Assembly: GCA_031423795.1 (NCBI GenBank)
Contig: JANPGH010000123.1
Coordinates: forward strand, 14,206-78,205
Length of the DNA: 64,000 bases
Direction: 5' to 3'
From: Elusimicrobiota bacterium
GTDB taxonomy: Bacteria; Elusimicrobiota; Elusimicrobia; UBA1565; UBA9628
The notes below the pieces were generated by a model. The model saw only the letters and a program-made list of their open reading frames with translations, was not told the DNA's origin and searched no databases. The stretch's first letter is position 1, and every line of letters starts with the position of its first letter. Position numbers and translations under genes: made by a program. Positions 2,950 to 26,799 of this stretch are shown in pieces.

Positions 2950-2950
2950 C

Positions 2951-5506: not shown

Positions 5507-5540
5507 ATAGCGTTAGTTTGACGAATCGAGTCTTCTTCGA

Positions 5541-5598
5541 ACAGGGTCATTGGGACCCCGCAACGTGGGATAAAGGACCCATCCTTGATATAATCGCC
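5541..5598. repeat. 58-bp conserved upstream element, copy 2 (divergent control region between paralog B and the GlpD-like gene)
   Basis: Same sequence as 4206..4263 with 3 substitutions. Dyad GGGTC ATTGG GACCC at 5544..5558. Confidence 0.85.
5586..5594 (+). promoter_or_regulatory. extended -10 promoter (TGATATAAT), probably giving a leaderless mRNA
   Basis: TG at 5586-87 and TATAAT at 5589-94. The GTG start at 5601 lies 6 nt after the -10 hexamer. There is no Shine-Dalgarno sequence. Confidence 0.45.
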
Positions 5599-5600
5599 GC

Positions 5601-6941: not shown

Positions 6942-7002
6942 CGCGCCAATTTTTTTGTAAAGTGAAGCGTCGGTTACCCATTTCAATTCTCGGAGAGCTC
7001 CC

Positions 7003-7683
7003 ATGAACAACGTTTGGTCACGAATCGAAGCCGTCCTCGAAGAAAAGTCGCTGCTCAAGCACCCCTTTTACCAGGCCTGGAACATGGGCACATTGACGCG
7101 CGAAGACCTCTCCCATTACGCGCAACAGTATTACGCGCAGGAATCCCGGTTTCCGCGATATTTGAGCGCGGTACATTCGAACTGCCCCGACGCCGCGACC
7201 CGCCGCGTGCTACTCGACAACCTCAATCATGAGGAAGCCGGCCCTGACAACCATCCCGAACTGTGGCTGCGCTTTGCCGAAACTGTCGGTGCCGATCGCG
7301 CCTCGGTGCTTTCCGCCGTGCCCCACGCGAAGACGACGGAGTGCGTCGAGTCCTTCGACCGCCTGTCTCGGGGAAGCTGGCAGACCGGTCTGGCCGCTTT
7401 GTATGCCTACGAAGTGCAGCAGCCGACCGTCGCCAAGACCAAGGTCGACGGCCTCGTTTCGAAGTACGGCCTCAATTCGAAAGCGGCCTTGGGCTTCTTC
7501 CAAGTCCACGAGACGCTCGACGCGTGGCATTCGGAGTCCGAAAAGAATATCTTGGACGGTGAAGTGAAGCGCGATCCCGCGTTGGCCGACGAATTGGTTA
7601 AGTCCGTCTCCTCGGCCTGCGACGCGCTAAACGCGTTGCTCGACGGCGTTTGCGAAGCGCGCGGCATCGCCTGCGCCTGCTAA
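7003..7683 (+). CDS. CADD/PqqC/TenA-like haem-oxygenase-fold di-iron protein
   Basis: LLKHPFYQAWNMGTLTREDLSHYAQQYYAQESRFPRYLS and NHPELWLRFAE resemble the CADD (Chlamydia CT610) family. GGAGAG Shine-Dalgarno sequence upstream. Confidence 0.65.
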   Translation: MNNVWSRIEAVLEEKSLLKHPFYQAWNMGTLTREDLSHYAQQYYAQESRFPRYLSAVHSNCPDAATRRVLLDNLNHEEAGPDNHPELWLRFAETVGADRASVLSAVPHAKTTECVESFDRLSRGSWQTGLAALYAYEVQQPTVAKTKVDGLVSKYGLNSKAALGFFQVHETLDAWHSESEKNILDGEVKRDPALADELVKSVSSACDALNALLDGVCEARGIACAC

Positions 7684-7687: not shown

Positions 7688-8149
7688 TCAGTAAACGCCG
7701 CGCTCCTGGTACCAGGGGATTTTCTTGCTGGACGGTTTCAGGCAATCGATAAAGACGATCACGCGCTCTTGGCCGTACACGTAGCCCCAGCGTCCGGTTC
7801 CCTTTAAGCTTGAGCCGTTGATCACCCCGTCGCTTAGGATGCCCGATCCGTAGTATTGGACCTTGTCCGTTTCTGAGCCGCAGGCGGGCAAATCGACCGC
7901 CGGTATGTTCGCGATGTATTTCGGCACCAAGTCGGTCAGCTTCGCGGGGATTTTTCTCTCCGCCTTGATGTAATCAGCGATAGCACTTTCAATCGATGCC
8001 AAGTTCGTGCGGGCTTTCGTCTCGCGGAAACTCATCTCTTCGTTGCGCGTCGCCCGTTCGAACGTGTCAGAAGTCTCATCGTGCATGAGCGAATTCATGC
8101 ACGCGGACGCCGATAAAATCAACGGAAGCAGAAAAAGTTTCCGTTTCAT
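7688..8149 (-). CDS. lipoprotein with pilin/pseudopilin-like core
   Basis: MKRKLFLLPLILSASAC lipobox. SIESAIADYIKAERKIPAKLTDLVPKYIANIP resembles a pseudopilin helix-loop. The start overlaps the mnmA stop by 4 nt. Confidence 0.5.
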   Translation of the reverse strand: MKRKLFLLPLILSASACMNSLMHDETSDTFERATRNEEMSFRETKARTNLASIESAIADYIKAERKIPAKLTDLVPKYIANIPAVDLPACGSETDKVQYYGSGILSDGVINGSSLKGTGRWGYVYGQERVIVFIDCLKPSSKKIPWYQERGVY

Positions 8150-9210
8150 TGGATTGCTCCTCTCATGATCGTGCCGCCGCCCAAGACGAAGCTGCCGTCG
8201 TAGAACACCGCGGCCTGGCCCGGCGCCGGCGCGCGTTGCGGCGCGTCGAAACGCACGAGAACCGTGCCGTCGGCGTTTAAGGACAGTCCGGCGGACGCCG
8301 GACTGTGTCGATGACGCACCCGCACTTGCGCGCGCACCGAACTAGCGGGCACACCCGCGGTCCAGGTGACGCTGCCGGCGACCAGAGAAGACGCCATCAC
8401 GTCGTTTTCGTCGCCGACGACCAATGTGTTCGTCTCGGGCTTCATACGCACGACATACAGCGGATCAGGCGATGTAACGCCAAGTCCCTTGCGCTGTCCG
8501 ACGGTGTAAGAGGCCAGACCGGAATGTTCGCCGATCACCCTGCCGTCGGTCGATTCAATGGGTCCTGGCATCAAGGTCGCAGCTCCGGCAGACTCGGACC
8601 GCGACGCGACAAAGCCGCGCACATCCCGCTCGGGAACGAAGCAGGTTTCCATGCTTTCCGGCTTGTCGGCGGTGCGCAATCTTAAGGTCCGCGCGCGTGC
8701 GCGCACTTCGTCCTTGGTCAGCGCGCCGACGGGGAACTCCGCCTTCGCCAGCTCTTTGGCCGTCAATGTATAAAGGAAGTAGGTTTGGTCCTTGCGCACA
8801 TCGATGGACGTAGACAGACGTCCATCGATGATTCTTGCATAGTGCCCGGTCGCGACCTTCCCACAGCCCCAGGCCTCGGCTAAATGCAGCAAGTGGCCGA
8901 ACTTCACCGATCGGTTACATTCGACGCACGGATTGGGAGTCGTGCCGTCAAGATAAGCGGCGACGTACGGCTTAATGACTTTCTGCTCGAAGCGTTCGGA
9001 CATGTCGGCCACGTAGTGGGGAATGCCCAGGGCCTCGCAGACACGCTTGGCGTCATCCACGTCCGCCGGAGAGCCGCAGCAGCCGAATCCCGTCGCCGCG
9101 CGCGGCAAGAGCTTCATCGTCACGCCGACGACGTCCTCGCCCCGCTCCTTAAGAATGGCGGCGGCCACCGAACTATCCACACCACCACTCATCGCCGCCA
9201 AAATCCTCAT
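8146..9210 (-). CDS. mnmA: tRNA 2-thiouridine(34) synthase MnmA
   Basis: MRILAAMSGGVDSSVAAAILKERGEDVVGVTMKL PP-loop motif. The start was moved to ATG 9210, which forms an ATGA overlap with the nifS stop (track ORF starts at 9258). Confidence 0.85.
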   Translation of the reverse strand: MRILAAMSGGVDSSVAAAILKERGEDVVGVTMKLLPRAATGFGCCGSPADVDDAKRVCEALGIPHYVADMSERFEQKVIKPYVAAYLDGTTPNPCVECNRSVKFGHLLHLAEAWGCGKVATGHYARIIDGRLSTSIDVRKDQTYFLYTLTAKELAKAEFPVGALTKDEVRARARTLRLRTADKPESMETCFVPERDVRGFVASRSESAGAATLMPGPIESTDGRVIGEHSGLASYTVGQRKGLGVTSPDPLYVVRMKPETNTLVVGDENDVMASSLVAGSVTWTAGVPASSVRAQVRVRHRHSPASAGLSLNADGTVLVRFDAPQRAPAPGQAAVFYDGSFVLGGGTIMRGAIQ

Positions 9211-10361
9211 GCCACGCTCGCCACCGACCGCAGACGACCGATCGCCACCGGCAGGCACTTCAAAAATCGGTCGATATCGGCCTCAGTCGTTCCCCAACCC
9301 ACGGAAATCCTCAAGGATCCGGCGGCAAGCCCGGGGTCAATTCCCATCGCCGTGAGGACGTGCGACGCAAGCGATGCCCCCGAGGAGCAGGCCGGACCGC
9401 TGGACACGCAGAATCCTTCGAGGTCAAGGGCCACGACCAAGTGGTGCCCATCGACCCCGCTGAAGACAAAATTGGAGGTATTCGGCAGGCGCCGCTCCGG
9501 GTGGCCATTGAGGCGCGCATCGCTAATTTTCAGCACGCCGGCTTCCAGGCGTCGCCGAAGAACCAATGCGTGAGCGGCACTCGACTTTAATTCGCGCAAA
9601 GCCAGCTCGCATGCCACGCCGAGGGCGGCGATGCTCGCGACGTTCTCCGTTCCGCCCCGCCTTTCCTTCTCTTGATGGCCGGTCAGGACCGGCGACAGTC
9701 GCACTCCGCGGCGCACGTATAGGGCACCGACCCCTTTCGGTGCGTTGAGCTTGTGCCCAGACAACGAGAGCATGTCGACTCCCAAAGCTTTCACATCGAC
9801 GGCGACCTTGCCTAGGGATTGCACGGCGTCGGTATGCATCAATGCGCCGCGCGCGCGCGCCAAGGCGGCGATCTCGGCGACCGGCTGCAGGACGCCGGTC
9901 TCGTTGTTGGCGTGCATCACGCTGACGACGATCGTGCGCTCATCAATCGACGCGCGAAGCGCGTCGACGGCGACGACGCCATCCGGGCTGCACGGCGCTT
10001 CCCCAATATCGAATCCTCGATGGCGCAATTCGCTCAGCTGACCGCGCACTGCGTCATGCTCGATCCGCGTTGCCAGGACTGTCCCGCGGCCGTTTTTCTC
10101 GGCGCGAGCCTGCCATGCGGCGCCTGAAATCGCGAAGACGTCGGATTCGGTGCCGCCGGAAGTGAAGATGATTTCGGATTGATCGGCAGCCCCGATCAAC
10201 GAGGCGACCGACTCGCGAGCGCGCTCGACGGCCGCCCGCGCCTTTTGTCCCAGCGAGTAGACCGAATTCGGATTGCCGTACCCGTCCCTCAGCCACGGCA
10301 ACATCGCATCGAGGACTTCCGGTCGGATCGGGGTGGTCGCGTTGTGGTCGAGGTAGGTCAT
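9207..10361 (-). CDS. nifS: cysteine desulfurase (NifS/IscS class)
   Basis: MTYLDHNATTPIRPEVLDAM...SGGTESD...SLSGHKLNAPKGVGALYVR (PLP lysine motif)...SSGPACSSG. Confidence 0.85.
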   Translation of the reverse strand: MTYLDHNATTPIRPEVLDAMLPWLRDGYGNPNSVYSLGQKARAAVERARESVASLIGAADQSEIIFTSGGTESDVFAISGAAWQARAEKNGRGTVLATRIEHDAVRGQLSELRHRGFDIGEAPCSPDGVVAVDALRASIDERTIVVSVMHANNETGVLQPVAEIAALARARGALMHTDAVQSLGKVAVDVKALGVDMLSLSGHKLNAPKGVGALYVRRGVRLSPVLTGHQEKERRGGTENVASIAALGVACELALRELKSSAAHALVLRRRLEAGVLKISDARLNGHPERRLPNTSNFVFSGVDGHHLVVALDLEGFCVSSGPACSSGASLASHVLTAMGIDPGLAAGSLRISVGWGTTEADIDRFLKCLPVAIGRLRSVASVA

Positions 10362-11068
10362 TGCCCGAAGCCGAAACCCTTAAAGAGGTCTTCTTCCCCG
10401 CCCGCGGCTTTCCCCGCGGGGGCACCTTCCGCGGCGGGTTTCGGTTCCTCAGCGGCAGGCTTGGTTCCAGGCAGGGTGGCGCCCTTAGGCGCGCCTTTGG
10501 CAGTCACGCCCGATACGATCGTTTTGCGCACGCCTTCGGCGAAAATAATCCGGCCTTTTTTGCGGTCGTAAAACAGGCGGAATTGGCTTTGCTTGGTCTG
10601 CGGTTCGTAAGCCTTACCAAGGTTGTCGCGCTCCTGCTCCCAACCGGGGTTGTAGAGCAAGCGTCCGCGCAAATCGACCTTGTTGCTCAACACCGGAAGG
10701 CTGAAACGGATGCGATAAAATCCGTTGGTATCGGAAACGCCGGGATCGAACGATGAGGTGGCAAATCCGGAGGGCCGGGCCTCGCCTTCCTCCACAACGT
10801 TCTCACCGCTGGCGACCGCGCGCACGACCACACCTTGAATGGGGTTGTCCTTGTAGTCCGTGATCACGCCTTGAATATATCCGTCGAGAAATTGCGTCTT
10901 CTGCGCGACAGAAAACACCAACAACTCGGTGGTTCCGGTCAGCTTTTCGGTGATCGAAAGATCGACGACCCGACCCTCGGCGAAATCCTCGACCACCACA
11001 TTCTTGTTCGAGGGTCCACAGGCGGCGAGCAAAACGAGAAGCCCGACGGTAAAAACACGGCGCAGCAT
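10358..11068 (-). CDS. lipoprotein with carboxypeptidase-regulatory-like beta-sandwich and Pro/Ala/Lys-rich tail
   Basis: MLRRVFTVGLLVLLAAC lipobox. GVVVRAV...TDTNGFYRIRF motif. 19 nt downstream of motB; its stop overlaps the nifS start. Confidence 0.5.
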   Translation of the reverse strand: MLRRVFTVGLLVLLAACGPSNKNVVVEDFAEGRVVDLSITEKLTGTTELLVFSVAQKTQFLDGYIQGVITDYKDNPIQGVVVRAVASGENVVEEGEARPSGFATSSFDPGVSDTNGFYRIRFSLPVLSNKVDLRGRLLYNPGWEQERDNLGKAYEPQTKQSQFRLFYDRKKGRIIFAEGVRKTIVSGVTAKGAPKGATLPGTKPAAEEPKPAAEGAPAGKAAGGEEDLFKGFGFGQ

Positions 11069-11087: not shown

Positions 11088-11840
11088 CTAGCGTTTCTCG
11101 GCGACAGGCACGGGCGCCTGAGCGTCGGCAGGAGCCGTTGTCGCCGCCGCTTCTGTCGGGGGTGCCGCCGCGGACTTGGCCGCCTTCTCGGCGTTTTCCT
11201 TGGCCAAAGTCGGTTTCGGAATCGATGCGCTTTTCACGAAAAAAACCACGCGCCGATTTTTGGCCCTCCCCTCCGGGGTCGCGTTCGGCACGACGGGCCG
11301 CGCGTCTCCATAACCGACGGCGCCGAGGTGTCCGGCTGGGATCCCGTATTTTTCAATGAGCAGCCGGGCCACGCTGGTCGCACGCGCAGTAGAAAGCTCC
11401 CAGTTCGAGTCGAAATACATGTTGTGGATCGGTTGGTCGTCGGTGTGGCCCTCGACTAAGATCTCGTGATCAGCGCCGAGCCTGCGCAAATTCGGCACGA
11501 GCAACGCGAGCTTGGCGTCCATTTCGGCGGTGGGTTCGGCCGCCCCTGACCCGAAGAACGGGATTCCCCCCTGTTCTTCGATCGAAATCTTGAGACCGTC
11601 CTTGTCGACTGTCACCTCGCCCTTCATTTTGCCCTTGTCCATCATGTCCTTCACGTCGGAAGCAGCCTTCTGGACATTTTTGTTCAAGGCCGCCGATAAC
11701 GCGTAGAGAATGACAAAGAAACAGACGAGCTCCGTCATCAAGTCGGCGTAATTGACCAGCCAGGCGGGCGCCGGGTGCCCGATCTGGCAGACTTTCGGAT
11801 CACTCTCGTCGATGAATCCTCTCGGGGCGCGCAGGGGCAC
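11088..11840 (-). CDS. motB: MotB-type stator protein (OmpA-like peptidoglycan-binding C-terminus)
   Basis: VNYADLMTELVCFFVILYAL (TM helix with the conserved Asp). GHTDDQPI...NWELSTARATSVARLL...NRRVVFFV is an OmpA/MotB domain. Confidence 0.85.
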   Translation of the reverse strand: MPLRAPRGFIDESDPKVCQIGHPAPAWLVNYADLMTELVCFFVILYALSAALNKNVQKAASDVKDMMDKGKMKGEVTVDKDGLKISIEEQGGIPFFGSGAAEPTAEMDAKLALLVPNLRRLGADHEILVEGHTDDQPIHNMYFDSNWELSTARATSVARLLIEKYGIPAGHLGAVGYGDARPVVPNATPEGRAKNRRVVFFVKSASIPKPTLAKENAEKAAKSAAAPPTEAAATTAPADAQAPVPVAEKR

Positions 11841-15320: not shown

Positions 15321-17360
15321 TTAAATCGCTTGGGCCTTCATCCCGTCGACCCATTGACGCAGGCCGGGATCGGGATTTTTGACCAGTACCGCCTCAAATT
15401 CCGCGATCGCCTCGCGCTGTCTCCCCATCTGCACGTAACACGTCCCCAAATACTGCCGCGCTTGCCAGAGTGAAGGATCCTGCGAGAGCGCGTATTCCAA
15501 ATACTGCGCCGCCTGCGGGAACTGCCCGGCGTCATGGCTTTGCACTCCCGCCGAGAAATAGGTTTGCGCCTGCGACGCCTGCGCCGGTGTGGCAAGTGCT
15601 GCGGGTGGAAGTGCTACGGGGGCCGCCGCATGCGCAGCGGCTCCCCCGCCCACCGCGGGACCCGAGCCCGCGCTGAGCAATTGCGCAACGGCCTGCTCGG
15701 CTGCGCGCGTGCGAGGTTCGTACTTGGCTCCCCGGTCGGAAGCCACTTCCTCGGTAAATCCGGAGAATGCGCCTCCACGGCTCTCACGGACGCTCACTTT
15801 TCCTTCCTTTTCCAAAACCTTGACGACGTCCATGATCTTCGAGCGCTCATCCTCGACCTGGCCGGCACTCAATCCCGAGGCGTACTCGATGGATTCCTTG
15901 AGCAAGGACGCCGCACCCGACGACATGTTCGACAGGAACTTGTTCAGGATGTCCGGGGCGGCGCCCTGGAGTGCCTTGGCCATCGATTCGGTCTTGAGTT
16001 CGCGCACGATCACTTGCATGTCGCGATCTGGGAAACCCACCACGTCCTCGAAGCTCATAATAAATTTGCGCACGCGCTGATAAACTTCGGGCTTCTCGTT
16101 CTTAAGATACTCCAGGATATTTGCCCGCGTCATCGTGTCCGCCTCATCGAGCAGTTGTGTCAGGCGCTCCATCCCGCCGACGACGAAATCCACGCTTTCC
16201 TTGATGTCGGCGTCTATCGCCATCAACTGTTCGCGCGTCACTTGGCGAAGTTTCAGGGCCTCGATGGCCACCTTCGCCTGCAGTTCCAGCGGCAACGCGG
16301 TTAGCGTCGCGCGCGCGAGATCCGACTTCATGTAGCTGAGCACGACGGCGATCAGCCACGGCTCGTCACCGCGAACCAGGAACAGGTTCCCGAGTCGCTT
16401 AAAGTTCTCCTCCGTGATGTAGGTGAACGGCTCGAACTTCTTCATGGCGTCCTCCACTTCTTCTTCCTCCGGCGGCGGAGGAGGCGCGTCGTCTGGCTTA
16501 CGGCCCATCATCACATCCAAAGCGGCGGCAGATTCCGACTCCTCGGTGCCGTCTCCCGATCCGTCCTCATCCTCGCCAGTGTCGAGCTTGGACTCGACGT
16601 TAACTTCGGCCGCCGGCTTTTCGCGCAACGCGGCGACATACTGACGGAAGAAGCGGGCGAGCGGTCCGAACAGGAACGAAAGAAAAAGCAGGAGGAGCAG
16701 CGCGTACAAAAGCGGCAGGTACACCGAGGGTTTCTTAAGGTCTTCCTTCCAATCCACCAACGGCGGCTTGTCGAATTGGGTCGGGCGGAAATCGATTTGA
16801 TCGTCGCCGAGCTTCTGGTAGTGGCTCATCGCGTCCTTGATGCGGTCGCGAACGACGTCCCGGGCTTTTTTGTCCTTAAGGACGCCGTCGTCGTGAATCA
16901 CGGTGACTTGGAGCCTTTTAAAGATGGGCTTGACGGAAAACCGCTGTTCGTCGACGCCTTTCATCTGTTGGGCTTGCTGGGCTTGCGATTGCTCGGGCTT
17001 TTCCGGATTTTGCTGGGCGGTGATCGTCTTGGGCTTGGGGATGCCAGGCAAGACGAACGTCGTCTGCATCCCACCGCGCGGCGCAGGCGCCTTCTCCTTG
17101 TATTTTTCGGCCACGCCCATACCGGTGCGCGTGGACTCCTGGCTCTCCGCCTTGACCTCCATTTCCACGTCGACGAACGCGGCGGCCTTGCCCTTGCCGA
17201 GCATGGTATCCAACACATCGTGTTGAATGCGCATTTCCGATTCGGCCTTTACCCGCGTCTGCTCCTGCAGCAGCGCCAAATCGGGCGCGACAACGGCCGC
17301 AAGCGCCGGAGTGAGTACCGGCGCCCCTAAGAGCAGGGCGGCGAGCAAATACATTTGCAT
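15321..17360 (-). CDS. FliF(YscJ)-like periplasmic segment + TM + FliG middle/C-terminal-like domains + TPR, in one polypeptide
   Basis: aa 1-25 signal/TM. aa ~40-200 carry VLDTMLGKGKAAAFVDVEMEV and FKRLQVTVIHDDG...RIKDAMSH...GDDQIDF (FliF ring-motif-like). TM at ~213-235. aa ~310-525 carry GGMERLTQLLDEAD... and FIMSFEDVVGFPDRDMQVIVRELKTESMAKALQGAAPDILNKFLSNMSSGAASLLKESIEY...KVLEKEGKV (FliG_M/FliG_C-like). aa ~600-679 are TPRs. Confidence 0.65.
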   Translation of the reverse strand: MQMYLLAALLLGAPVLTPALAAVVAPDLALLQEQTRVKAESEMRIQHDVLDTMLGKGKAAAFVDVEMEVKAESQESTRTGMGVAEKYKEKAPAPRGGMQTTFVLPGIPKPKTITAQQNPEKPEQSQAQQAQQMKGVDEQRFSVKPIFKRLQVTVIHDDGVLKDKKARDVVRDRIKDAMSHYQKLGDDQIDFRPTQFDKPPLVDWKEDLKKPSVYLPLLYALLLLLFLSFLFGPLARFFRQYVAALREKPAAEVNVESKLDTGEDEDGSGDGTEESESAAALDVMMGRKPDDAPPPPPEEEEVEDAMKKFEPFTYITEENFKRLGNLFLVRGDEPWLIAVVLSYMKSDLARATLTALPLELQAKVAIEALKLRQVTREQLMAIDADIKESVDFVVGGMERLTQLLDEADTMTRANILEYLKNEKPEVYQRVRKFIMSFEDVVGFPDRDMQVIVRELKTESMAKALQGAAPDILNKFLSNMSSGAASLLKESIEYASGLSAGQVEDERSKIMDVVKVLEKEGKVSVRESRGGAFSGFTEEVASDRGAKYEPRTRAAEQAVAQLLSAGSGPAVGGGAAAHAAAPVALPPAALATPAQASQAQTYFSAGVQSHDAGQFPQAAQYLEYALSQDPSLWQARQYLGTCYVQMGRQREAIAEFEAVLVKNPDPGLRQWVDGMKAQAI

Positions 17361-17414: not shown

Positions 17415-19046
17415 TTAGGGTTTCAAGGATTGGAGAAAGTCCCTGACCGAGCGGTTGTTCGGGTCCAGTTCCAGGACCTTGCGCCAAATCGCGACCGCTT
17501 TGTCTTTCTGGTCCATCAAGAAGAACGACGATCCCATGATCTCGAGCGCGGTCACGTTGTTGGGCTCCAAGTCCAGGACGTCTTGCGCGCGGCGCACCGC
17601 GGAGTCGTAATGGCCCTCGTAGATGGACTGCCGGGCGTCGAAGACCTTTTGGTCGACCCACGTGAACTGCTCGGGGCCCTCCAGCCGGCGCGTTACATCG
17701 GCAACCCCCGCTTCCTTCTCGACCATGTTCAACAGGCCGAGCAATTTCTCGTCGCGCGGGTTCTTGTTGAACGCGTAGCGCAGCGCGTTGACCGAGACCT
17801 TGAGGTCGCGCCCGTCGACGTAGGCGATAGCACCCTTGCGCACGAAGGTTTGCGCTTCCTCTCCGCCGGTGGCTGCCGGGACATAGTTGGTCACCGCAGA
17901 CAGGCGCGCGATCATGGTCTCGACTTGCTTGTTGCCGGGTGCTGCGTCCTGGGCCTGGTTGAACTTCTGTGCGGCCAAGGCGAAGTTTCCTTCCTGGAAA
18001 GCTTCCATTCCCGCTTTTACGAAATTCTTGACTTGCGCCGTCGACCGGTCGGACCGAGATTGGCCGAAGCGGAACGTGATCGAAATGCGCGTGCTGGACC
18101 CCAGGTCATGGATTCCTTGGGCGAGGTCGAGCGTAAAGCTGTTGAAATTGAGTCCGAAGCCGAAATCCGTCTCTTGGATCGACGGCAGCCCCAACAAGCC
18201 GAAGCGGAACGCGAACCAGCGAGAAACCCAATATTCGCCGCCAAAACGCAGCTCGGTCGAGGCGCTGAGCGATTTTTGGATGTCCGCTGAGAGCATCAGG
18301 CGCTCCTTGAACAGGCGCATCGAGTTGCCGAGCTTAATTGTCACCGGGTACTTGTCCTGGGTGTCGCCCTGGGTCTGGGAGAACACATTCTGCATTCCCA
18401 GCCCCACGCGGTAGGACGCTCCCATCGTCTTCATCATCCCTAAGTCCAAGGCCTTGGTGTTGTCGGCGGACCCGCCGACCTTGCGCGTGACCTGTTTGAC
18501 GGTCATGCCGAACAGCGTCGTCTCCGTAATGCCTTTGGCCCAAGACAGCGCCATCGCCTGCTGCTGGTCTTGGAAGCTGCCGTTGGTCTTCACCGAGGTC
18601 ACATCGCCTGATGTCGGGTTGTATACGGCGTCTACCTGCTCGAATCCGCTACCCGTGAACTGAGTCATGCTCAGCGCGAACACCGAGCCGCTCTTAGTTG
18701 GGTGGGCATAGCTGAAATACGTAAGTTTGGTCTGCACGTATAGTGTGGCCTGCATCGTCGTCAACTCTTTGCGCTGGAGCTGGGCCAGGCCGGCCGGGTT
18801 CCAATACGCGGCGGAAGCGTCGTCCGAGATGCCGTAGTAGGCACCGCCCATGGCCATCGCGCGGCCACCGACGCCGAAATTCATGAACTGACCGGTAACA
18901 CCACCGCTCTGGGCCGAGGCGTAAGCGGCGCAAAGGCTCAAAAACAGGCCTATTAGCACGCGCGCGCCACCGACGGCCTTTACTACGGCCGACGCAGGCG
19001 AGACGCGCTTGAGAGCGCGCCCCCTCACGTAGTTATAGGGCATCAC
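17415..19046 (-). CDS. outer-membrane beta-barrel (PorV/UPF0164-like N-terminal motif) with C-terminal TPR domain
   Basis: Signal peptide ...LSLCAAYASAQ. GGRAMAMGGAYYGISDDASAAYWNPAGLAQL motif, then alternating beta-strand pattern ending ...RISITFRF, followed by ~190 aa of TPR-like repeats. The first codon is GTG 19046, followed by ATG 19043. Confidence 0.6.
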   Translation of the reverse strand: MMPYNYVRGRALKRVSPASAVVKAVGGARVLIGLFLSLCAAYASAQSGGVTGQFMNFGVGGRAMAMGGAYYGISDDASAAYWNPAGLAQLQRKELTTMQATLYVQTKLTYFSYAHPTKSGSVFALSMTQFTGSGFEQVDAVYNPTSGDVTSVKTNGSFQDQQQAMALSWAKGITETTLFGMTVKQVTRKVGGSADNTKALDLGMMKTMGASYRVGLGMQNVFSQTQGDTQDKYPVTIKLGNSMRLFKERLMLSADIQKSLSASTELRFGGEYWVSRWFAFRFGLLGLPSIQETDFGFGLNFNSFTLDLAQGIHDLGSSTRISITFRFGQSRSDRSTAQVKNFVKAGMEAFQEGNFALAAQKFNQAQDAAPGNKQVETMIARLSAVTNYVPAATGGEEAQTFVRKGAIAYVDGRDLKVSVNALRYAFNKNPRDEKLLGLLNMVEKEAGVADVTRRLEGPEQFTWVDQKVFDARQSIYEGHYDSAVRRAQDVLDLEPNNVTALEIMGSSFFLMDQKDKAVAIWRKVLELDPNNRSVRDFLQSLKP

Positions 19047-19215: not shown

Positions 19216-19243
19216 ATTGTAACGGGAATATGGCACCTGTCAA
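19216..19243 (-). promoter_or_regulatory. sigma70-like promoter for the 19046..7688 operon
   Basis: The minus strand reads TTGACA (19243-19238), a 16-nt spacer, then TACAAT (19221-19216). Predicted leader is ~160 nt and contains the nested hairpin 19144..19189 (CACGCCGC...GCGGCGUG with inner GGAUC/GAUCC) and the riboswitch-like segment. Confidence 0.55.
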
Positions 19244-19876: not shown

Positions 19877-20500
19877 ATGCCCGAATCAGAGTCGGATTCT
19901 AAATTAGATAGACAAAAGCTGACTCTTTGGCTGTCGATTGGAGCTGCGATCTCCCTAATTCTGCCACTGCTTATCGCGGCTTATATGCATTGGGGCGGAA
20001 ACGGCGGGCCGGGGGGGCCAGGGATGCGCAATGACGTTTTCGAACATCGCGAAGGCGCCGATCGGCGGATCGTCCCGAACCAAGCCTTGGCCATGCCTGT
20101 AGCGCCGCCGCCGACCAATAAAGTCAACCGCCAAGACCTCGAGAACAGCGGATCTTCTCTCGATTTTATCAAGCCGGCTTCGGAAATCGCCGGTAAAGTC
20201 GCCCCTCCGGCCGCGGTGCCACCAGTCGCCCCGGCTCCCGAAAAGACACCCGTGGCAGCGCCCCCGCCGAAAGCCGTGCATAAACCCGCGCCAAAGAGCA
20301 AAAAGAGTTTCGCAACACCCAAGCTGCAGCCGTCGCGCGGGTTTACGAAGATGGGCGGATCGAAAAATGCGACGCCGACCGCAAATGGTTCCCCGTCGCA
20401 GGGCGGGAGCCAACAGGACTTGCTGAAAAACCTAGTGCCGGAAGCGGCCAACAATCCCCAGCTTCAGCAGTACCTCAACCAACATGGTCAGGGGCAGTAG
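19877..20500 (+). CDS. single-pass membrane protein with Pro/Ala/Lys-rich extracytoplasmic region
   Basis: TM helix LTLWLSIGAAISLILPLLIAAYM followed by a low-complexity P/A/K-rich region. No recognisable family. Confidence 0.45.
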   Translation: MPESESDSKLDRQKLTLWLSIGAAISLILPLLIAAYMHWGGNGGPGGPGMRNDVFEHREGADRRIVPNQALAMPVAPPPTNKVNRQDLENSGSSLDFIKPASEIAGKVAPPAAVPPVAPAPEKTPVAAPPPKAVHKPAPKSKKSFATPKLQPSRGFTKMGGSKNATPTANGSPSQGGSQQDLLKNLVPEAANNPQLQQYLNQHGQGQ

Positions 20501-20503: not shown

Positions 20504-21400
20504 TTAAGCGGCCAGCGGGCGACGGGATTTCAAAACGGTCTCGCCGATCTCGGACAGGTTTTCGACCACCGTGATGCCAGCCGCGCGCATCGCCGCAATC
20601 TTCGACTCGTGGGTTCCCGCTCCACCTTCGACGATCGCGCCCGCGTGGCCCATACGACGGCCCACCGGAGCGGACTTACCGGCAATGAAGCCGAAAACGG
20701 GCTTGGTCATCTTGTCCTTGAAGAATCGCGCCGCGTCCTCTTCGGCCGCACCCCCGATCTCGCCAATCATGACGACGGCTTCGGTCTGGGGATCCGCCTC
20801 GAATTTCGCCAGGATGTCCGAGAAGTTCGAGCCCGCGATCGGGTCGCCGCCGATGCCGACGACCGTCGACTGGCCGAGGCCGCGCTTGGTGAGCTGGTCA
20901 ACGGCTTCGTAGGTCAAGGTACCGGACCGTGAGACGACGCCGATCGACCCGGGTTTATGGATGAATCCGGGCATGATTCCCGCCTTGCACTCTCCGGGCG
21001 TGATCACGCCGGGGCAATTCGGGCCGATGAGCGTGATTTCACGCCCCTGGCGCGACTGGATATCGATGTAGCGCTTGACGCGCGCCATGTCGAGCACGGG
21101 AATGCCCTCGGTAATGCAGATGATCGTCGAGCAGCCCGCGTCGACCGCTTCCATGATCGAGTCCGCGGCGTACGGCGCGGGGACAAATATCAACGAGGCA
21201 AACGCGCCGGTGTTGCGCACCGCGTCGTGCACGGTATTGAACACCGGACGATCGAGGTGGGTCTGGCCGCCTCGGCCGGGGGTTACGCCGGCCACGATTT
21301 GCGAGCCGTATTCGATGCACTGCTTGGCGTGGAAGGAGCCCGCCGAGCCGGTAAATCCTTGCACGAGAATCTTCGAGGATTTGTCGAGGATGATGGACAT
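20504..21400 (-). CDS. sucD: succinate--CoA ligase subunit alpha
   Basis: [45 protein letters not shown]...MGHAGAIV. The start was moved to ATG 21400, just after the sucC stop at 21403 (track ORF starts at 21448). Confidence 0.9.
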
Positions 21401-21402
21401 GG

Positions 21403-22566
21403 TTATTTCCCCTTCGCCGCGTCGACCGCTTTTTGGGCGGCCTCCCAAAGTTCGTCCGCTTGAATCAACGGGATTCCCGAGTCACGGAGAATTTTCTTGC
21501 CCGCGTCGACGTTCGTGCCCTGCAGCCGCACGACGAGCGGGATGCGCAGCTTGATTTTCTTCAAGGCGGCCACCACTCCGGCCGCGATCATATCGCATTT
21601 CACGATGCCGCCGAAGATGTTGATCAAAATCGCCTTGACCTTCTTGTCCTTCAGGATGATTTTGAGCGCGTGCGTCACGCGGGCCTCGTCGGCGGAACCG
21701 CCGACGTCGAGGAAATTCGCCGGACTTCCGCCGGCGAGCGCGATCGTGTCCATGGTCCCCATCGCGAGCCCCGCACCGTTGACCATGCAGCCGATGGTAC
21801 CGTCCAGGCCGACGTAGGAGATGTCGTGTTTTTTGGCCTCGATTTCAAGGGCCGTCGCCTCGTGATCCGGGCGTCTCGCCAAGTCCTTCTGACGGAACAG
21901 GGCGTTGTCGTCGGTGATCATTTTGGCGTCCAACGCCATAATGCCTTTAGGAGTCAAAATCAGCGGATTGATTTCCAGCATCGAGCCGTCCAAGTCGATG
22001 AATGCCTTGACCAAGGCCTTAGTCACGCGACAGAATTCGCCAACTCGGTCGTTCGGAATGGCCAGCGCGAACGCAAGCCGGCGCGCGGCGAAGTCTCTCA
22101 AGCCAACGTTTGGATCGACGCCCATGCGGATGATCGCCTCGGGATGCTCCTCGGCCAAGGTCTCGATTTCCATCCCGCCTTGGGCTGAGGCGATGATGAC
22201 CGGGCCCGCGGATTTGCGGTCCATCACGACGGAGAAATAAAGCTCGCGCTCGATCTTGACGCCGCCTTCAATCAATAATTCATTAACCTTGATCGCTTGG
22301 CCGTGCGTTTGGTGCGTGATCAGGTCCATACCGATCATCGCCTTGGCGAAGGCCGCGGCTTCCTTCGGCGTTTTGGCGAGCTTGATTCCGCCCGCCTTGC
22401 CCCGTCCGCCCGCCAACACCTGAGCCTTGAGCACCCATGGAGCCTTCCCCGCACGCCGCAAAGCTGCTGACAATTGGCCCGTCTTCTTGATCACTCCGCC
22501 GTTCGCGGGGACCGGCACGCCACGCTCCTTCAAAATTTCCTTCGCCTCGAACTCGAGAAGCTTCAT
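21403..22566 (-). CDS. sucC: succinate--CoA ligase subunit beta
   Basis: [20 protein letters not shown]...[20 protein letters not shown]...[10 protein letters not shown]. Confidence 0.9.
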
Positions 22567-22593
22567 TTCATCTCCTTGTCAGCGTTGACGGCG

Positions 22594-23628
22594 TCAGGCG
22601 ACGGTCCAGGTCTCGGGGCCCTTGAGAAGCTTTGCGAGATCGGCCGGCTTTTCCTTCTTCGCGTGGTCGATTTGCCCGGTCATCAGCTCGTGTAGCGCGG
22701 GGCGTTCGACGGAGCGCAGTACGCCGAGCGGCATCGGGTCGCCTATCTGCGCGAGCACGTTGGCCAGCGTGGGTGTGGTCGCGTGCTCATTGTGCGTCAA
22801 CAAATCCGCCGGCGGGTTGGCAGGGTCGAAGGTCACGACCTCGGTCTCCAGGCCCTTCAGACGCAGGCCTTTGTCCTTCTTCGCGCCGAAAATCATCGGC
22901 TTGCCGTGCTGGAGCTTGAGCGTTTTCTCGTCGCGCACACCTTTGGCGATCACTGGATCCCAGACAGCGTCATTGAAGACAATGCAGTTCTGGAAAATCT
23001 CAATGAACGCGGAGCCTTTATGCTTCGCGGCTCGGCCTAACACCTCGGCGAGATGGGGCAGGTCGGTGTCGGCGGCCCGGGCGACGAAGCTCGCCTCGGC
23101 CGCAAGTGCTATTGCAATCGGATTAAGCGGTGCGTCGATCGTCCCCATCGGCGAAGACTTGGTCTTCATGCCGAGTTCCGAAGTCGGCGAATACTGTCCC
23201 TTGGTCAACCCGTAGATCTTATTGTTGAACAACAATATCTTCAAGTCGACGTTGCGCCTGAGGGCGTGTATTAGGTGGTTGCCTCCGATCGACAGGCCGT
23301 CGCCATCGCCGGTGATCACCCAGACTTGGAGCTCGGGGCGCGCGCACTTGACGCCGGTGGCCACCGTCGGAGCGCGGCCGTGGATCGAGTGGAAGCCGTA
23401 GGTGTTCATGTAGTACGGGAACCGCGACGAGCACCCGATTCCCGAGACGAAAACGATGTTCTCTTTGGGAATTCCGACGCTCGGCATCAATTTCTGGACG
23501 ACAGACAAGATCGCGTAGTCGCCGCAGCCGGGGCACCAGCGGACCAATTGGTCCGACTTGAAGTCCTTCGCCTGAAGCACGGGGCCCGACGCGGGCAGGG
23601 TTTCGAGTTCGTCTTGCATATCGGCCAT
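22594..23628 (-). CDS. korB: 2-oxoacid:ferredoxin oxidoreductase beta subunit (2-oxoglutarate type inferred from context)
   Basis: WCPGCGDYAILSVVQKLM...GIGCSSRFPYYMNTYGFHSIHGRAPTVATG...ITGDGDGLSIGGNH (TPP-binding motif). Confidence 0.85.
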   Translation of the reverse strand: MADMQDELETLPASGPVLQAKDFKSDQLVRWCPGCGDYAILSVVQKLMPSVGIPKENIVFVSGIGCSSRFPYYMNTYGFHSIHGRAPTVATGVKCARPELQVWVITGDGDGLSIGGNHLIHALRRNVDLKILLFNNKIYGLTKGQYSPTSELGMKTKSSPMGTIDAPLNPIAIALAAEASFVARAADTDLPHLAEVLGRAAKHKGSAFIEIFQNCIVFNDAVWDPVIAKGVRDEKTLKLQHGKPMIFGAKKDKGLRLKGLETEVVTFDPANPPADLLTHNEHATTPTLANVLAQIGDPMPLGVLRSVERPALHELMTGQIDHAKKEKPADLAKLLKGPETWTVA

Positions 23629-23629
23629 G

Positions 23630-25495
23630 TTACTTGTCCCCCAACAACGATTGAATCCCGGCTTCGATCTCAGACACTTTAAATGGCTGTCCCTTGACCT
23701 TGTTGAGGCCCGTCGCCGGCACCAGGTATTTCGCGCGCAGGACCTTCAAGAACTGGCCCATGTTCAACTCCGGAACGAGAACGTGTTCGTATGCGGCCAG
23801 GATGTCGCCGAGATCCGGAGGCAGGGGATTAAGGTGCCGAATGTGCACCGACGACACGGACTTTCCGGCTTTCTGAAGGTTCTGGACGGCAGCCGTGATC
23901 GCGCCGTACGTGCCGCCCCAACCGACGACGAGGACCTTGCCCTTCTTCTCGCCGAGCACTTCGGTCGGCGGGATGTCTTGGGCGATCTTGTTAACCTTCG
24001 CCGCGCGCAAACGGACCATGCGCTCGTGGTTTTCTGGGTCATAGGACACCGTGCCGGTGATGTCCTGTTTCTCGATACCGCCGATACGGTGTTCGTAGCC
24101 GGCTAGGCCCGGAGCCACCCACGCGCGCGCCATCGTCTCCGGATCGCGCTTGTAGGGCTTCCAATCGGCCGCGGGCGGAGGCGTCGCTTTTTCGAATTTT
24201 TGGAGCTTGCTGGGATCGGGAACGGCCCATGGTTCGGAACCGTTGGCCAAATAACCGTCGGTGAGCAGGAACACGGGTGTCATGTACTTGACCGCCAGGC
24301 GGCAGGCCTCGTACGCCATTTCATAACAGTCTCCCGGTGTGGCCGCGGCGATCACGGGCACCGGGCACTCGCCGTTGCGGCCGTACAAGGCTTGCAGAAG
24401 GTCCGCTTGCTCGGTTTTTGTCGGCAGCCCGGTCGAAGGTCCGCCGCGTTGAACGTTGAGGATGACCAACGGCAGCTCGGTCATTACCGCCAGACCAATC
24501 GCCTCGCCCTTGAGCGCGATGCCCGGACCCGACGTCGTGGTGAGCGCCAGGCAACCCGCAAAAGACGCCCCAATGGCCGATCCGATGGCGGCGATCTCGT
24601 CTTCCGCCTGGAATGTCTTCACTCCGAAATTCTTGTGCTTCGACAGCTCATGCAGGACGTCGGATGCCGGCGTGATTGGGTAGGAGCCCAGCCATAGTTG
24701 CAGTCCCGACAATTGAGAGGCGGTAATGAACCCCAGCGCGGTCGCCTCGTTGCCGGTGATGTTCCGGTACAGGCCGGGCTTGATCGGCGCCTTGCGCACG
24801 CGGAAGTGATGGCCGAAAATTTCCGCCGTCTCGGCGTAAGCGTTGCCCGCGTGCAGCGCGCGATGGTTGGCTTCCACGTACTTCGGGTTCTTCTTGAACT
24901 TATGCTCGATCCATTTTAAGGTGGCGTCCATGGGCCGGTCGTAGAGCCAATACGTCATACCGAGCGCGAAAAAGTTCTTGCAGCGCTCGGTCTCCGTGGC
25001 CGAAAGACCCAGGCCTTCGAGCGCGTTCCGGGTCAGGCGGGACAACTCGACTTGGATCAAGCGAAAATCGGAGAGACTGCCATCGTCCAGCGGATTTTGG
25101 GTGTAACCGGCCTTCACCAAATTGGCCTGGCTGAACGTGTCCTTGTTAACCAACAGAATGCCACCCGTGCGTACATCCTTATAATTGGCCTTCAGGGCCG
25201 CCGGGTTCATCGCGACCAGCACGTCGGGAGCGTCTCCCGGAGTGAGCACTTCGCGCGATGAAAATTGGATTTGGAATCCGGACACACCGGCGATGGTGCC
25301 AACGGGGGCGCGGATCTCGGCGGGAAAGTCGGGAAGGGTGGAGAGGTCGTTTCCGGCGAAGGCGGTAGTGGTGGTGAATTGAGAGCCGGTCAGCTGAATA
25401 CCGTCACCCGAGTCTCCTGCAAAACGAATCACGGCAGATTCAATTTCCTCGACCGGCAGCGCCGCGGGCTTTGAGGTAATGGTGGTGTCGCTCAT
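23630..25495 (-). CDS. korA: 2-oxoacid:ferredoxin oxidoreductase alpha subunit (fused gamma-alpha type)
   Basis: VIRFAGDSGDGIQLTGSQFT...SYPITPASDVLHEL...GLPTKTEQADLLQALYGRNGECP. Its stop lies 1 nt before the korB start. Confidence 0.85.
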   Translation of the reverse strand: MSDTTITSKPAALPVEEIESAVIRFAGDSGDGIQLTGSQFTTTTAFAGNDLSTLPDFPAEIRAPVGTIAGVSGFQIQFSSREVLTPGDAPDVLVAMNPAALKANYKDVRTGGILLVNKDTFSQANLVKAGYTQNPLDDGSLSDFRLIQVELSRLTRNALEGLGLSATETERCKNFFALGMTYWLYDRPMDATLKWIEHKFKKNPKYVEANHRALHAGNAYAETAEIFGHHFRVRKAPIKPGLYRNITGNEATALGFITASQLSGLQLWLGSYPITPASDVLHELSKHKNFGVKTFQAEDEIAAIGSAIGASFAGCLALTTTSGPGIALKGEAIGLAVMTELPLVILNVQRGGPSTGLPTKTEQADLLQALYGRNGECPVPVIAAATPGDCYEMAYEACRLAVKYMTPVFLLTDGYLANGSEPWAVPDPSKLQKFEKATPPPAADWKPYKRDPETMARAWVAPGLAGYEHRIGGIEKQDITGTVSYDPENHERMVRLRAAKVNKIAQDIPPTEVLGEKKGKVLVVGWGGTYGAITAAVQNLQKAGKSVSSVHIRHLNPLPPDLGDILAAYEHVLVPELNMGQFLKVLRAKYLVPATGLNKVKGQPFKVSEIEAGIQSLLGDK

Positions 25496-25574: not shown

Positions 25575-26780
25575 TCAGGTAATTTCGCGCATTTCGAACT
25601 GCATCGTTGTCGCACCACAGTCTATCAAGTCTCCTTCCTTGAGGAGAACCGAACCGGAAATCTTGGAGCCATTGACCAGAGGATATTTGTCGGTCACCGC
25701 CACTAAAACGAACCCCTCGGTTTTCCGATGAATGGACGCGGCCACTTCCGGGGCCGAACCGAAAAGACCCGCCCCCTTTATTGGAATTTGAACCCTATCG
25801 GATTTTCCGATATAAGTGGACGTTCCACGAAGTTCATACTCGCTGGCGCCGATGACGCCTTTGAGGATCCGTAACCAGGCCTGCCGGCGCTCCGTGGCCA
25901 CGGCCTTCGGCGGCAACGCACCGCTGTCGTTCTTCGATTCGGTCTCTTGCGACAAGGCGAGATCGACCACTTCGGCCTTTACGTTCGGTAGCGAGCTTTC
26001 GGGTTTGGCCACGAGGGGATCAAAGGCGTCGAGCTTATCCACCGCGGGCTCGGCTTTGGGTGCCATTGGTTCGGGTTTTAGAGCCGCCGGTTCTGGTTTG
26101 TCGACGGCGGGCTGTGGCTCCGGATCGATCTCGAGATTGGATTTGGGCGGAAACGTCGCCGGCTTCGCCGACGACTCCGTTACGGGTTCGAATTTCGGCA
26201 ATGCTCCCGACGCGGAACCCGACTTCGGCACGCTCGCCGAAGGGAATTCCATCTTCGGCAGATTGGCGGCCGGGAACTCCATTTTCGAGGAGGCTTTGGG
26301 CAGATTTTCCGCCGGCAGGATCGTACCGGGAAGGGGCGGTGGGGACGCCTTGGGGACGCCCGCCGGAGGCACTGCCTTTGGCGTCAGAACGACCGGCGAT
26401 TGCGTCTTGGGGCCTGGCAGCGGCGGATCTGCTTTCGGCTTGACCTGGCCCGGGGCGTCGGTCGGAGAAATCGGCAAAGGCATCGTCGGCGGCTCGGCTT
26501 CGATGAAAACCAGCGTGTGTTTGGCCACGCTGATGATGTCGTGATGACGCAACCCCGCCTTCTTGACTCTCTTGTCGTTGACGAAAGTTCCATTCGTCGA
26601 TTCCAAATCTTCGACGAAGACGGACCCGTTCTGTACGGTGATCCTGCAATGGTGCCCCGAAACAGCGGGATTTTCGATCACCAGATCATTGTCGGGCTTG
26701 CGCCCGACCGACAGCGTGCTCTTGGAAAGCGGAATTTCCTTGATTACCGCTGCGTTGAACTTAAGAAGAAGCTTCTGCAT
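25575..26780 (-). CDS. FHA-domain protein (N-terminal FHA, Pro-rich linker, C-terminal FHA-like domain)
   Basis: LSVGRKPDNDLVIENPAVSGHHCRITVQNGSVFVEDLESTNGTFVND is a canonical FHA domain. The C-terminal YIGKSDRVQIPI...ASIHRK...PLVNGSKI is FHA-like. Confidence 0.8.
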   Translation of the reverse strand: MQKLLLKFNAAVIKEIPLSKSTLSVGRKPDNDLVIENPAVSGHHCRITVQNGSVFVEDLESTNGTFVNDKRVKKAGLRHHDIISVAKHTLVFIEAEPPTMPLPISPTDAPGQVKPKADPPLPGPKTQSPVVLTPKAVPPAGVPKASPPPLPGTILPAENLPKASSKMEFPAANLPKMEFPSASVPKSGSASGALPKFEPVTESSAKPATFPPKSNLEIDPEPQPAVDKPEPAALKPEPMAPKAEPAVDKLDAFDPLVAKPESSLPNVKAEVVDLALSQETESKNDSGALPPKAVATERRQAWLRILKGVIGASEYELRGTSTYIGKSDRVQIPIKGAGLFGSAPEVAASIHRKTEGFVLVAVTDKYPLVNGSKISGSVLLKEGDLIDCGATTMQFEMREIT

Positions 26781-26799
26781 CGATCATTCTCCCTCATTG

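Follow-up and report, generated by a model that had tools for sequence, protein, structure and literature searches.

A natural FliF-FliG-TPR fusion in a FlbD-MotAB gene module of Elusimicrobiota, a candidate rotor for a filament-less motor

What might a flagellar rotor protein be doing among genes that build no flagellum? The question is raised by a 64,000-nucleotide stretch of DNA from an Elusimicrobiota bacterium (contig JANPGH010000123.1), analysed as a whole and referred to here as the window. One of its open reading frames (ORFs) encodes a 679-aa protein in which a FliF-like periplasmic domain, the middle and C-terminal domains of FliG and a set of tetratricopeptide repeats (TPRs) are joined in a single chain. 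The same product had been singled out in a preliminary description of the window, which read it as a natural FliF-FliG fusion; that description did not see the non-flagellar context, a row of seven genes that also encodes FlbD-MotAB and a PorV/PorQ-family protein. We propose, with a probability of about 60%, that the fusion serves as the rotor subunit in an ion-driven rotor-stator machine that derives from the flagellum and has no filament. Each of the parts is of a known kind; what appears to be new is how they are combined, and that the combination sits apart from flagellar gene clusters.

Architecture and family of the fusion protein

The fusion protein contains exactly two hydrophobic segments by hydropathy, at aa 2-31 and aa 210-239, in keeping with the N-terminal signal or transmembrane (TM) segment and the single TM helix foreseen in the preliminary description. 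The first is probably a signal peptide and cleaved, as suggested by a conserved A-x-A just before a conserved APDL. Beyond the TM helix, the expected acidic and proline-rich linker is present as a low-complexity stretch in the alignment (aa 240-309), and is followed by aa 310-530, which align with the Thermotoga maritima FliG_MC structure 1lkv (E 3.5e-30, phmmer against the PDB). Within this region, Pfam places FliG_M (PF14841, cut-off 25 bits) on aa 328-389 (E 1.1e-8, 35.7 bits) and FliG_C (PF01706, cut-off 23.3 bits) on aa 418-523 (E 1.2e-23, 83.8 bits). The NCBIfam FliG equivalog TIGR00207 scores 104.4 bits, under its cut-off of 226.7, and is covered at model positions 115-329 only. FliG_N (PF14842) has no match above noise in the fusion protein, its 11.9 bits overlapping FliG_M. 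At the C-terminus, TPR_19 (aa 610-664) and two TPR_2 matches account for the TPRs that had been noticed. The two FliG families anticipated in the preliminary description therefore match above their cut-offs, while the PF01514 (YscJ/FliF) match anticipated with them is not found anywhere in the protein.

The EHPQR motif of FliG_M is the site of FliM binding. The T. maritima EHPQ aligns with DEPW in the window protein, and the family carries (D/E)EPW with E333, P334 and W335 invariant, so that the EHPQ(R) motif is not kept. The fusion lacks FliF RBM1 and RBM2, the FliF C-tail, FliG_N and the FliM-binding motif; these domain boundaries fit the earlier suggestion that covalent fusion replaces the contact between the FliF C-tail and FliG_N.

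The FliF identity of the periplasmic domain is weak on the window protein alone and is established by the Pfam matches of its relatives, by profile comparison and by fold. When family N-terminal domains were isolated, 17 of 20 matched PF08345 (YscJ_FliF_C, cut-off 23.8 bits) and no other family, with a best E of 5e-11. Distant full-length relatives exceed the cut-off as well (P0183, 34.8 bits; P0202, 30.6; P0170, 24.8; P0165, 24.2). A whole-length family profile was set aside in searches of the PDB, since it was swamped by TPR and FliG matches, and a profile of the N-terminal domain alone was used instead. With this profile, Salmonella FliF is matched at E 1e-7, the alignment running collinearly over FliF residues 239-290 and 355-439 (RBM3 and β-collar); Vibrio FliF is matched at E 1e-4 and the ring-builder SpoIIIAG at 0.03. 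The AlphaFold2 model of the domain (mean predicted local distance difference test score, pLDDT, 77.6) has the order α-β-[disordered insert]-β-α-β, with two strands of 19-20 residues and an invariant LPGIPxPK in the insert. The top 18 PDB matches of this model in Foldseek are all FliF MS-ring structures or models, at the RBM3/collar (E 5e-8 to 2e-4, probability 1.0), and the matches that follow are unrelated, with E above 0.01. All of the ~185 periplasmic residues align to FliF 239-439, so the periplasmic part, already described as far shorter than that of FliF, corresponds on the combined profile, Pfam and fold evidence to the S-ring-forming FliF domain only. We note that RBM3-like periplasmic domains are also fused straight to a MotA/ExbB-type channel (PF01618) in two proteins of 333-372 aa, P0181 (3333..4451 of locus L084) and P0204, so that a ring-building domain and a 5:2 motor subunit are linked there in a different manner.

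The architecture is not confined to this genome. The database survey envisaged in the preliminary description returned 412 matching protein clusters with the full-length architecture (55-82% identity among the best 120 of the 412) and 123 species-representative Elusimicrobiota genomes, with identity down to 39%. The species-genome search used clade-specific peptide patterns, and its all-Elusimicrobiota outcome is partly by construction; other routes led to a more distant clade of about 45 clusters, assigned to Ca. Aminicenantes via the gene for ribosomal protein S9 that its contigs carry. An exhaustive search with the N-terminal 240 residues against 1.84 billion cluster representatives yielded only 84 relatives, which indicates a narrow family. 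A frameshift or assembly artefact, a possibility raised in the preliminary description, was rejected, since hundreds of independent assemblies conserve the architecture at full length. In public databases, members of the family are annotated as "FliG C-terminal domain-containing" or "tetratricopeptide repeat protein". One member of the P0165 cluster, RLE71917.1, lies on a 4.9-kb contig labelled "Thermoprotei archaeon" at NCBI; given the bacterial FliF/FliG/TPR protein found there, this label is most likely a binning error.

The seven-gene module and its stator

The fusion gene is the second of seven tightly packed, co-directional genes with gaps of -4 to 54 bp (Table 1). The module has one good promoter match. 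The region holds 5 promoter-like sites where 3.1 are expected, and the candidate upstream of gene 1 is a consensus match only; internal terminator-like sites are no commoner than chance. We compared 80 related loci with 10-kb flanks, in which genes 1, 2, 3, 5, 6 and 7 were found in 76, 80, 73, 64, 61 and 52 loci, respectively, gene 1 directly beside the fusion gene and the absences falling at contig ends. In every related locus that is long enough, gene order and strand are constant, across lineages only 40% identical, and the flanking genes vary. The same core recurs in the loci of Aminicenantes and other lineages, including FlbD upstream of motA; no gene 7 was called in the two Aminicenantes loci examined. 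Against close relatives (dS around 1), the ratio of nonsynonymous to synonymous substitution rates (dN/dS) is 0.07-0.25 in all seven genes, which indicates purifying selection.

Table 1. Coordinates of the module and its domains in the window, with the evidence for each assignment
Feature	Position	Strand	Evidence
Promoter candidate, sigma-70-like, TTGACA-16-TACAAT, 11/12	19216..19243	-	Consensus match, ~170 bp upstream of gene 1
Gene 1, outer-membrane protein, 543 aa, signal peptide	17415..19046	-	NF033709, Pfam
Gene 1, PorV/PorQ-family beta-barrel, aa 53-327	18066..18890	-	NF033709
Gene 1, C-terminal TPRs, about aa 470-538	17433..17639	-	Pfam TPR_2/TPR_19
Gene 2, FliF(RBM3)-FliG(M,C)-TPR fusion, candidate rotor subunit, 679 aa	15321..17360	-	Pfam, PDB phmmer, alignment, AlphaFold2, Foldseek, family profile
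Gene 2, N-terminal hydrophobic segment, probable cleavable signal peptide, aa 1-24	17289..17360	-	Hydropathy, alignment
Gene 2, periplasmic FliF RBM3/beta-collar-like domain, aa 25-209	16734..17288	-	AlphaFold2 model, Foldseek, family profile, PF08345
Gene 2, single TM helix, aa 210-239	16644..16733	-	Hydropathy, AlphaFold2 helix 211-244, invariant residues of LPLLxALLxLLxLxFLFGPL
Gene 2, acidic/proline-rich flexible linker in place of FliF C-tail and FliG_N, aa 240-309	16434..16643	-	Gap-rich, variable alignment stretch
Gene 2, FliG middle and C-terminal domains, aa 310-530	15771..16433	-	PDB 1lkv, Pfam, invariant E333 P334 W335
Gene 2, torque helix NMSSGAASLLKESIEY, aa 478-493	15882..15929	-	Alignments
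Gene 2, cytoplasmic C-terminal TPR domain, two to three repeats, aa 596-664	15369..15575	-	Pfam TPR_19/TPR_2, PDB TPR alignments
Gene 3, cytoplasmic polyproline/coiled-coil-like protein, 803 aa	12890..15301	-	Composition, heptad periodicity
Gene 4, FlbD, small flagellar stator-associated protein, 76 aa	12663..12893	-	PF06289, E 1e-21, 76.7 bits
Gene 5, MotA, flagellar-type stator A subunit, 262 aa	11850..12638	-	PDB alignments, Pfam MotA_ExbB and MotA_N
Gene 6, MotB, 250 aa: TM helix, channel Asp33, plug, OmpA-like peptidoglycan-binding domain	11088..11840	-	Pfam, PDB
Gene 7, lipoprotein, 236 aa, lipobox ...LLAAC	10358..11068	-	Sequence, alignment

Gene 1 covers the whole of the NCBIfam model NF033709 (PorV/PorQ family) with 101 bits, against a cut-off of 90, and an E of 9.6e-29. 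It falls far under the cut-offs of the separate PorV and PorQ equivalog models and has weak Pfam matches to FadL and UPF0164. Gene 3 has no Pfam or NCBIfam match and no hydrophobic segment. Its N-terminal 70 aa are 36% proline, with PPPLP motifs, and the polyproline N-terminus is kept in both phyla; a roughly 720-aa helical, coiled-coil-like region follows, with a heptad periodicity of z = 4.4 and a single proline in 720 aa, and the chain closes with a basic tail, WTKRLFGKGEQ. Genes 3 and 4 share 4 bp where the first ends and the second begins. Gene 4, shorter than the 150-aa ORF cut-off, was detected among the smaller ORFs and is well above the PF06289 cut-off of 24.7 bits. The order flbD-motA-motB is that of flagellar operons in Spirochaetes and Firmicutes.

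The lipoprotein encoded by gene 7 is predicted to be mostly β-strand, and its AlphaFold2 model is of low confidence (pLDDT 52.8). Its extreme C-terminus, (D/E)DLFKGFGFG(Q/P), is almost invariant across the phylum, and the lipoprotein tail reads EEDLFKGFGFGQ. A motif of the form DLF[KRS]GFGFG also occurs in RBM3-like proteins that are short and stand alone (P0160, P0166, P0174, P0182 and P0187), where it lies within the insert loop. The recurrence of this motif suggests a short docking peptide, whose receptor could possibly be a TPR domain.

The stator is of flagellar type. MotA aligns over its full length with Clostridium sporogenes MotA (8ucs/6ysf, E 1e-54) and with PomA (E 9e-44), and MotB matches the Pfam families MotB_plug (PF13677) and OmpA (PF00691) as well as MotB structures in the PDB. 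MotA P156 and P204 are invariant in 63/63 sequences, as is the channel residue D33 of MotB in 60/60. An expanded cytoplasmic domain, a plug, an OmpA-like domain and the channel residues place the pair in the "FIT" group of flagellar-type stators (PMC12505986). The NCBIfam stator equivalog cut-offs are missed (220 versus 394 bits), which marks this MotAB as a divergent member of the flagellar type.

How do rotor and stator face each other? In Escherichia coli, MotA R90 contacts FliG D288/D289 and MotA E98 contacts FliG R281 (PMC12505986), and we mapped these contact pairs onto the module by fixed spacing in alignments. The torque helix NMSSGAASLLKESIEY aligns with NMSKRAAALLKDELEY of T. maritima in the phmmer comparison with the PDB, so that the difference described in the preliminary description can be seen directly. 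On the rotor, the equivalents of K264, R281, D288, D289 and R297 are Q465, G482, E489, S490 and S498: a single charge is kept, all three flagellar basic torque residues being replaced (by Q, G and S/T) and the acidic D288 equivalent being retained as E489. On the stator, R90 and E98 correspond to K91 (followed by K92) and Q99. The altered charge interface proposed earlier thus holds, and it extends to the K264 and R297 equivalents and to the MotA E98 position. In both phyla, almost no family member has the rotor Arg. E489 does not vary in the family, the MotA K/R is kept and the MotA E98 equivalent is Gln in 52 of 63 members. Strict co-variation of MotA E98 with FliG R281 was considered and is only partly true; we read the pattern as an ordered, lineage-specific loss and not as proof of contact. 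On the simplest reading of the alignments, the rotor basic residues would have been lost first and the partnerless stator acid afterward, in the lineage of the window. Such a pattern fits a real partnership between MotA and the rotor, short of proof.

Possible function of the module and rival explanations

The mechanism that we propose would begin with RBM3 assembling the fusion into a ring in the inner membrane. In FliF, RBM3 forms an S-ring of 33-35 subunits. The tethered FliG_C domains would face peptidoglycan-anchored FlbD-MotA5B2 units, and ion flow through these units would push the FliG torque helix and turn the ring, across an interface reduced to one polarity, MotA K91/K92 (positive) against FliG E489 (negative). 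As the module encodes no switch complex, export gate, rod, hook or filament, torque would go to its own partners and not to a propeller. On the cytoplasmic side, the TPRs of the rotor probably hold the polyproline N-terminus of the gene 3 coiled-coil protein. The link to the outer membrane is probably made in the periplasm by the collar, together with the TPRs of the gene 1 barrel protein and the C-terminal peptide of the lipoprotein. The output may power the secretion, anchoring or movement of giant surface proteins, as GldLM/PorLM do in type IX secretion and gliding.

This last step draws on the neighbours of the module in related loci. In 27 of the 61 loci with enough upstream sequence, mainly from Elusimicrobiales, deeper lineages and Aminicenantes, the gene immediately upstream of the PorV-like one is a giant, co-directional ORF. 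Giants at the head of the module were noted among loci L046, L051-L057, L060-L079 and L081. These ORFs exceed 2,500 aa, which is a lower bound because they run past the 10-kb flank. The giant neighbour in locus L086 was called at 17,141 aa, its gene (1..7241) running off the locus; a protein of this length would be among the largest of bacteria. The giants are homologous to each other over more than 2,500 residues and have nearly no Pfam domains besides a C-terminal sorting-like domain of ~100 aa, with a YPNP motif and an Ig-like pattern, that matches the sorting-domain portions of PorU, PorZ and M6-like cargo models. PorV binds such sorting domains in Bacteroidota. Because giant sorting-domain proteins head the same operon in many relatives, the handling of surface proteins would, by analogy, be the most likely job of the module; it is at the same time the least certain step of the scheme, and we offer it tentatively. 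Stated in full, the idea is that of an undescribed envelope-spanning rotary machine, present in at least two phyla, in which a minimal rotor and MotAB power a type-IX-like apparatus that secretes giant adhesins of up to ~17,000 residues or moves them across the cell surface as in gliding, a picture that is possible and still doubtful. There is a real chance that the module represents a distinct class of machine.

Several observations weigh against a rotor in a machine of this kind. Ring formation, rotation and function are all steps that we infer. The window protein alone scores 17.2-20.5 bits on PF08345, below the cut-off, and the fold matches, highly specific as they are, are geometrically loose (TM-score 0.3-0.49), which is to be expected from setting a single free chain against chains packed in a ring. 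With three of the five charged residues of the torque interface lost, its basic ones, the contact could be weaker or of another kind, and the MotA Glu is retained in 11 of 63 members, including some Elusimicrobiales and Aminicenantes, so that the change from Glu to Gln is not universal and the co-variation of MotA with FliG is only suggestive. The divergent locus L086 has no MotAB within 10 kb. Of the five giants scored on the type-A sorting-domain model TIGR04183 (cut-off 23 bits), one passes, that of L083 with 24.7 bits, and the other four reach 17.6-22.2. The 64-kb window holds no sorting-domain protein (best profile E 0.33; tblastn negative) and none adjoins the module in close relatives; the link to a type IX secretion system (T9SS) therefore holds by family and not at this locus, and the T9SS comparison itself covers the PorV/PorQ barrel and sorting-domain cargo only. 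The screen for other flagellar genes (export apparatus, rod, hook, filament, FliM/FliN) found none, which speaks for a filament-less machine, and it covers the 64-kb window of this genome.

The rival that survives best keeps the parts and dispenses with rotation. Here the fusion would be a non-rotary force transducer or scaffold: FliG_MC would dock or activate MotAB, and the module would serve as a trans-envelope tether or as a linear coupler like Tol-Pal, TonB or Agl-Glt. Its parts do span all envelope layers (outer-membrane barrel with TPRs, lipoprotein, peptidoglycan-binding MotB, inner-membrane protein and cytoplasmic coiled coil), the charges of the torque interface are much reduced, and the RBM-like domain is also fused directly to MotA/ExbB-like channels (P0181, P0204). 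TPR lipoproteins and MotAB/TolQR-like motors co-occur in Agl-Glt, which counts in the same direction. However, the only solved structures that the RBM3/collar resembles are those of ring builders, the FliF S-rings and more weakly SpoIIIAG, and the stator, with its plug and expanded cytoplasmic domain, is flagellar-type and not generic Tol/Exb in the framework of PMC12505986. Elusimicrobia are also reported to possess their own Tol-Pal system (PMC12204202). We consider a force transducer unlikely on balance. The narrower proposal that the module is Tol-Pal under another name was rejected on account of the flagellar-type stator and the separately reported Tol-Pal.

An ordinary flagellar rotor, with the remaining flagellar genes elsewhere and the fusion merely replacing separate FliF and FliG, would fit our view of 64 kb of the genome. 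Ring assembly is known for engineered FliF-FliG fusions, which are reported to be functional in Salmonella. Complete sets of flagellar genes do exist in a few genomes of Elusimicrobiota (10.1101/2022.07.08.499144). The fusion, however, is missing RBM1/RBM2, FliG_N and EHPQR, its constant neighbours are non-flagellar, and no flagellar gene was detected in the window or, by called genes or tblastn, in the related flanks screened. In FliF, RBM1/RBM2 surround the export gate. Two papers also report structural flagellar genes to be absent from most Elusimicrobiota that bear fliG, motAB and flbD: Uzun et al. found that most free-living members lack them and nevertheless keep motAB, flbD and fliG, in a role termed "enigmatic" (10.1101/2022.07.08.499144), and Doud et al. 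remarked on the absence of flagellar genes in Elusimicrobia (PMC7031533). This explanation is accordingly quite improbable.

Less probable again is a stator regulator, in which the membrane-anchored FliG_C would act as a decoy or parking site for the stators, or as a reporter of ion-motive force, and the TPRs would recruit signalling partners. FliG/MgtE_N-type domains do serve as sensors elsewhere, the fusion has a weak MgtE_N match and its charged ridge is altered, but in most of these genomes the stators have no other rotor (10.1101/2022.07.08.499144), and the RBM3 ring domain and the outer-membrane partners would be left without a role. That the genes are a functionless relic, decaying after loss of the flagellum, would suit a phylum reported as mostly non-flagellated with few flagellar homologues kept (10.1101/2022.07.08.499144), but is effectively excluded by the conservation data: the dN/dS values of all seven genes, a gene order invariant across such distant lineages, invariant catalytic residues and many invariant motifs, and the presence of the architecture and its partner genes in a second phylum.

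With the fusion taken as the rotor of a filament-less motor, the module can be set beside systems already known. With the flagellar motor core it shares homologous RBM3/β-collar, FliG_M, FliG_C, FlbD, MotA and MotB, the same membrane topology, and the conserved MotB channel Asp, MotA prolines, plug and peptidoglycan-binding domain. It differs in that FliF and FliG are one polypeptide with C-terminal TPRs, from which RBM1/RBM2, the FliF C-tail, FliG_N and EHPQR are missing; in having no FliM/FliN, export, rod, hook or filament genes nearby; in the loss of the K264, R281 and R297 equivalents; and in its constant partners, a PorV/PorQ-type barrel, a coiled-coil protein and a lipoprotein. Engineered FliF-FliG fusions of Salmonella and of Vibrio alginolyticus (PDB 8z4d/8z4g) likewise put the MS-ring and FliG in one chain at 1:1, and the Vibrio construct assembles into S-rings with 34-35 subunits. 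Both were made in the laboratory from full-length FliF and FliG, whereas the present fusion is natural, would work outside a flagellum and has everything before RBM3, and between RBM3/TM2 and FliG_M, deleted.

The T9SS and gliding machinery of Bacteroidota resembles the module in its PorV/PorQ-family barrel, in the giant protein with a YPNP-type Ig-like sorting domain found in related loci, and in having, encoded next to these, an ion-driven 5:2-superfamily motor of the inner membrane. Its motor is GldLM/PorLM, whereas that of the module is a true MotAB with a FliF/FliG rotor; the barrel of the module bears TPRs, and the module belongs to Elusimicrobiota and Aminicenantes. Myxococcus Agl-Glt also combines a trans-envelope MotAB/TolQR-like motor with TPR proteins, outer-membrane barrels and lipoproteins, and the NCBIfam GltE and Tgl TPR models match the fusion weakly; the Agl motor, however, is of the TolQR type with no FliG/FliF partner, and homology is limited to the TPRs. 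Zorya (ZorAB) is a further non-flagellar use of a MotAB-like 5:2 motor. The module shares with it a generic similarity of MotB to ZorB, without ZorA, ZorC or ZorD, and its MotA is flagellar-type; with MotB on the ZorB models as the only PADLOC match in the module, Zorya or another defence system was rejected. Our searches of the literature for natural FliF-FliG fusions, FliG with PorV, non-flagellar FliG and Elusimicrobiota motAB returned only engineered fusions and a KEGG-level remark by Uzun et al. No description of the fusion architecture, of the seven-gene module or of the association with PorV and giant proteins was found in the searchable literature.

If the module works as proposed, then an S-ring, FliG_MC and a stator core are useful without a switch complex, export gate or filament, and evolution would have redeployed the torque core of the flagellum for another function of the envelope. 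For motor biophysics it would provide a naturally minimal rotor, with a fixed 1:1 ratio of FliF to FliG and an interface of single polarity. A ring-plus-stator unit independent of type III export also bears on the origin of the flagellum, as an intermediate or derivative that those debates lack; in a more radical alternative, the module may descend from a ring-plus-stator device that predates the flagellar export apparatus and filament. Finally, it offers an answer to the puzzle of Uzun et al., namely why members of the phylum without flagella, magnetotactic ones among them, retain fliG, flbD and motAB.

Genes around the module in the window

At the downstream end, the start of iscS (cysteine desulfurase) overlaps the stop of gene 7 by 4 bp, and mnmA is next, the two genes occupying 8146..10361 on the minus strand; mnmA still adjoins the module in Elusimicrobiales, where iscS is absent. 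This overlap and the persistent adjacency of mnmA suggest that the module may be co-transcribed with tRNA thiolation genes. At the upstream end lies a divergent gene (19877..20500, plus strand) for a 207-aa protein whose single TM helix and tail rich in proline and alanine recall TonB/TolA. This gene adjoins the module in the subclade of the window only (23 of 80 loci). It is followed by sucCD and a two-subunit 2-oxoacid:ferredoxin oxidoreductase (20504..25495, minus strand) and, ~6 kb upstream of the module, by a signalling cluster (25575..30419, minus strand) that encodes an FHA protein with a Yop-YscD_cpl-like match, a PP2C phosphatase and a 935-aa CHASE2 Ser/Thr kinase.

Farther away, positions 31636..42841 are probably an integrated mobile element or prophage remnant, where GC content dips to 55-57%. 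Its genes include a large serine recombinase (31636..33381), a terminase-like protein (34146..35558), an HTH_7 protein, a 1148-aa ORF with no family match (36979..40425) and a tyrosine integrase (41957..42841). Positions 43201..58173 hold metal-handling genes, for two P-type ATPases (one of them copper-type), an MgtC/DUF4010 protein and a CusCBA-like RND efflux system.

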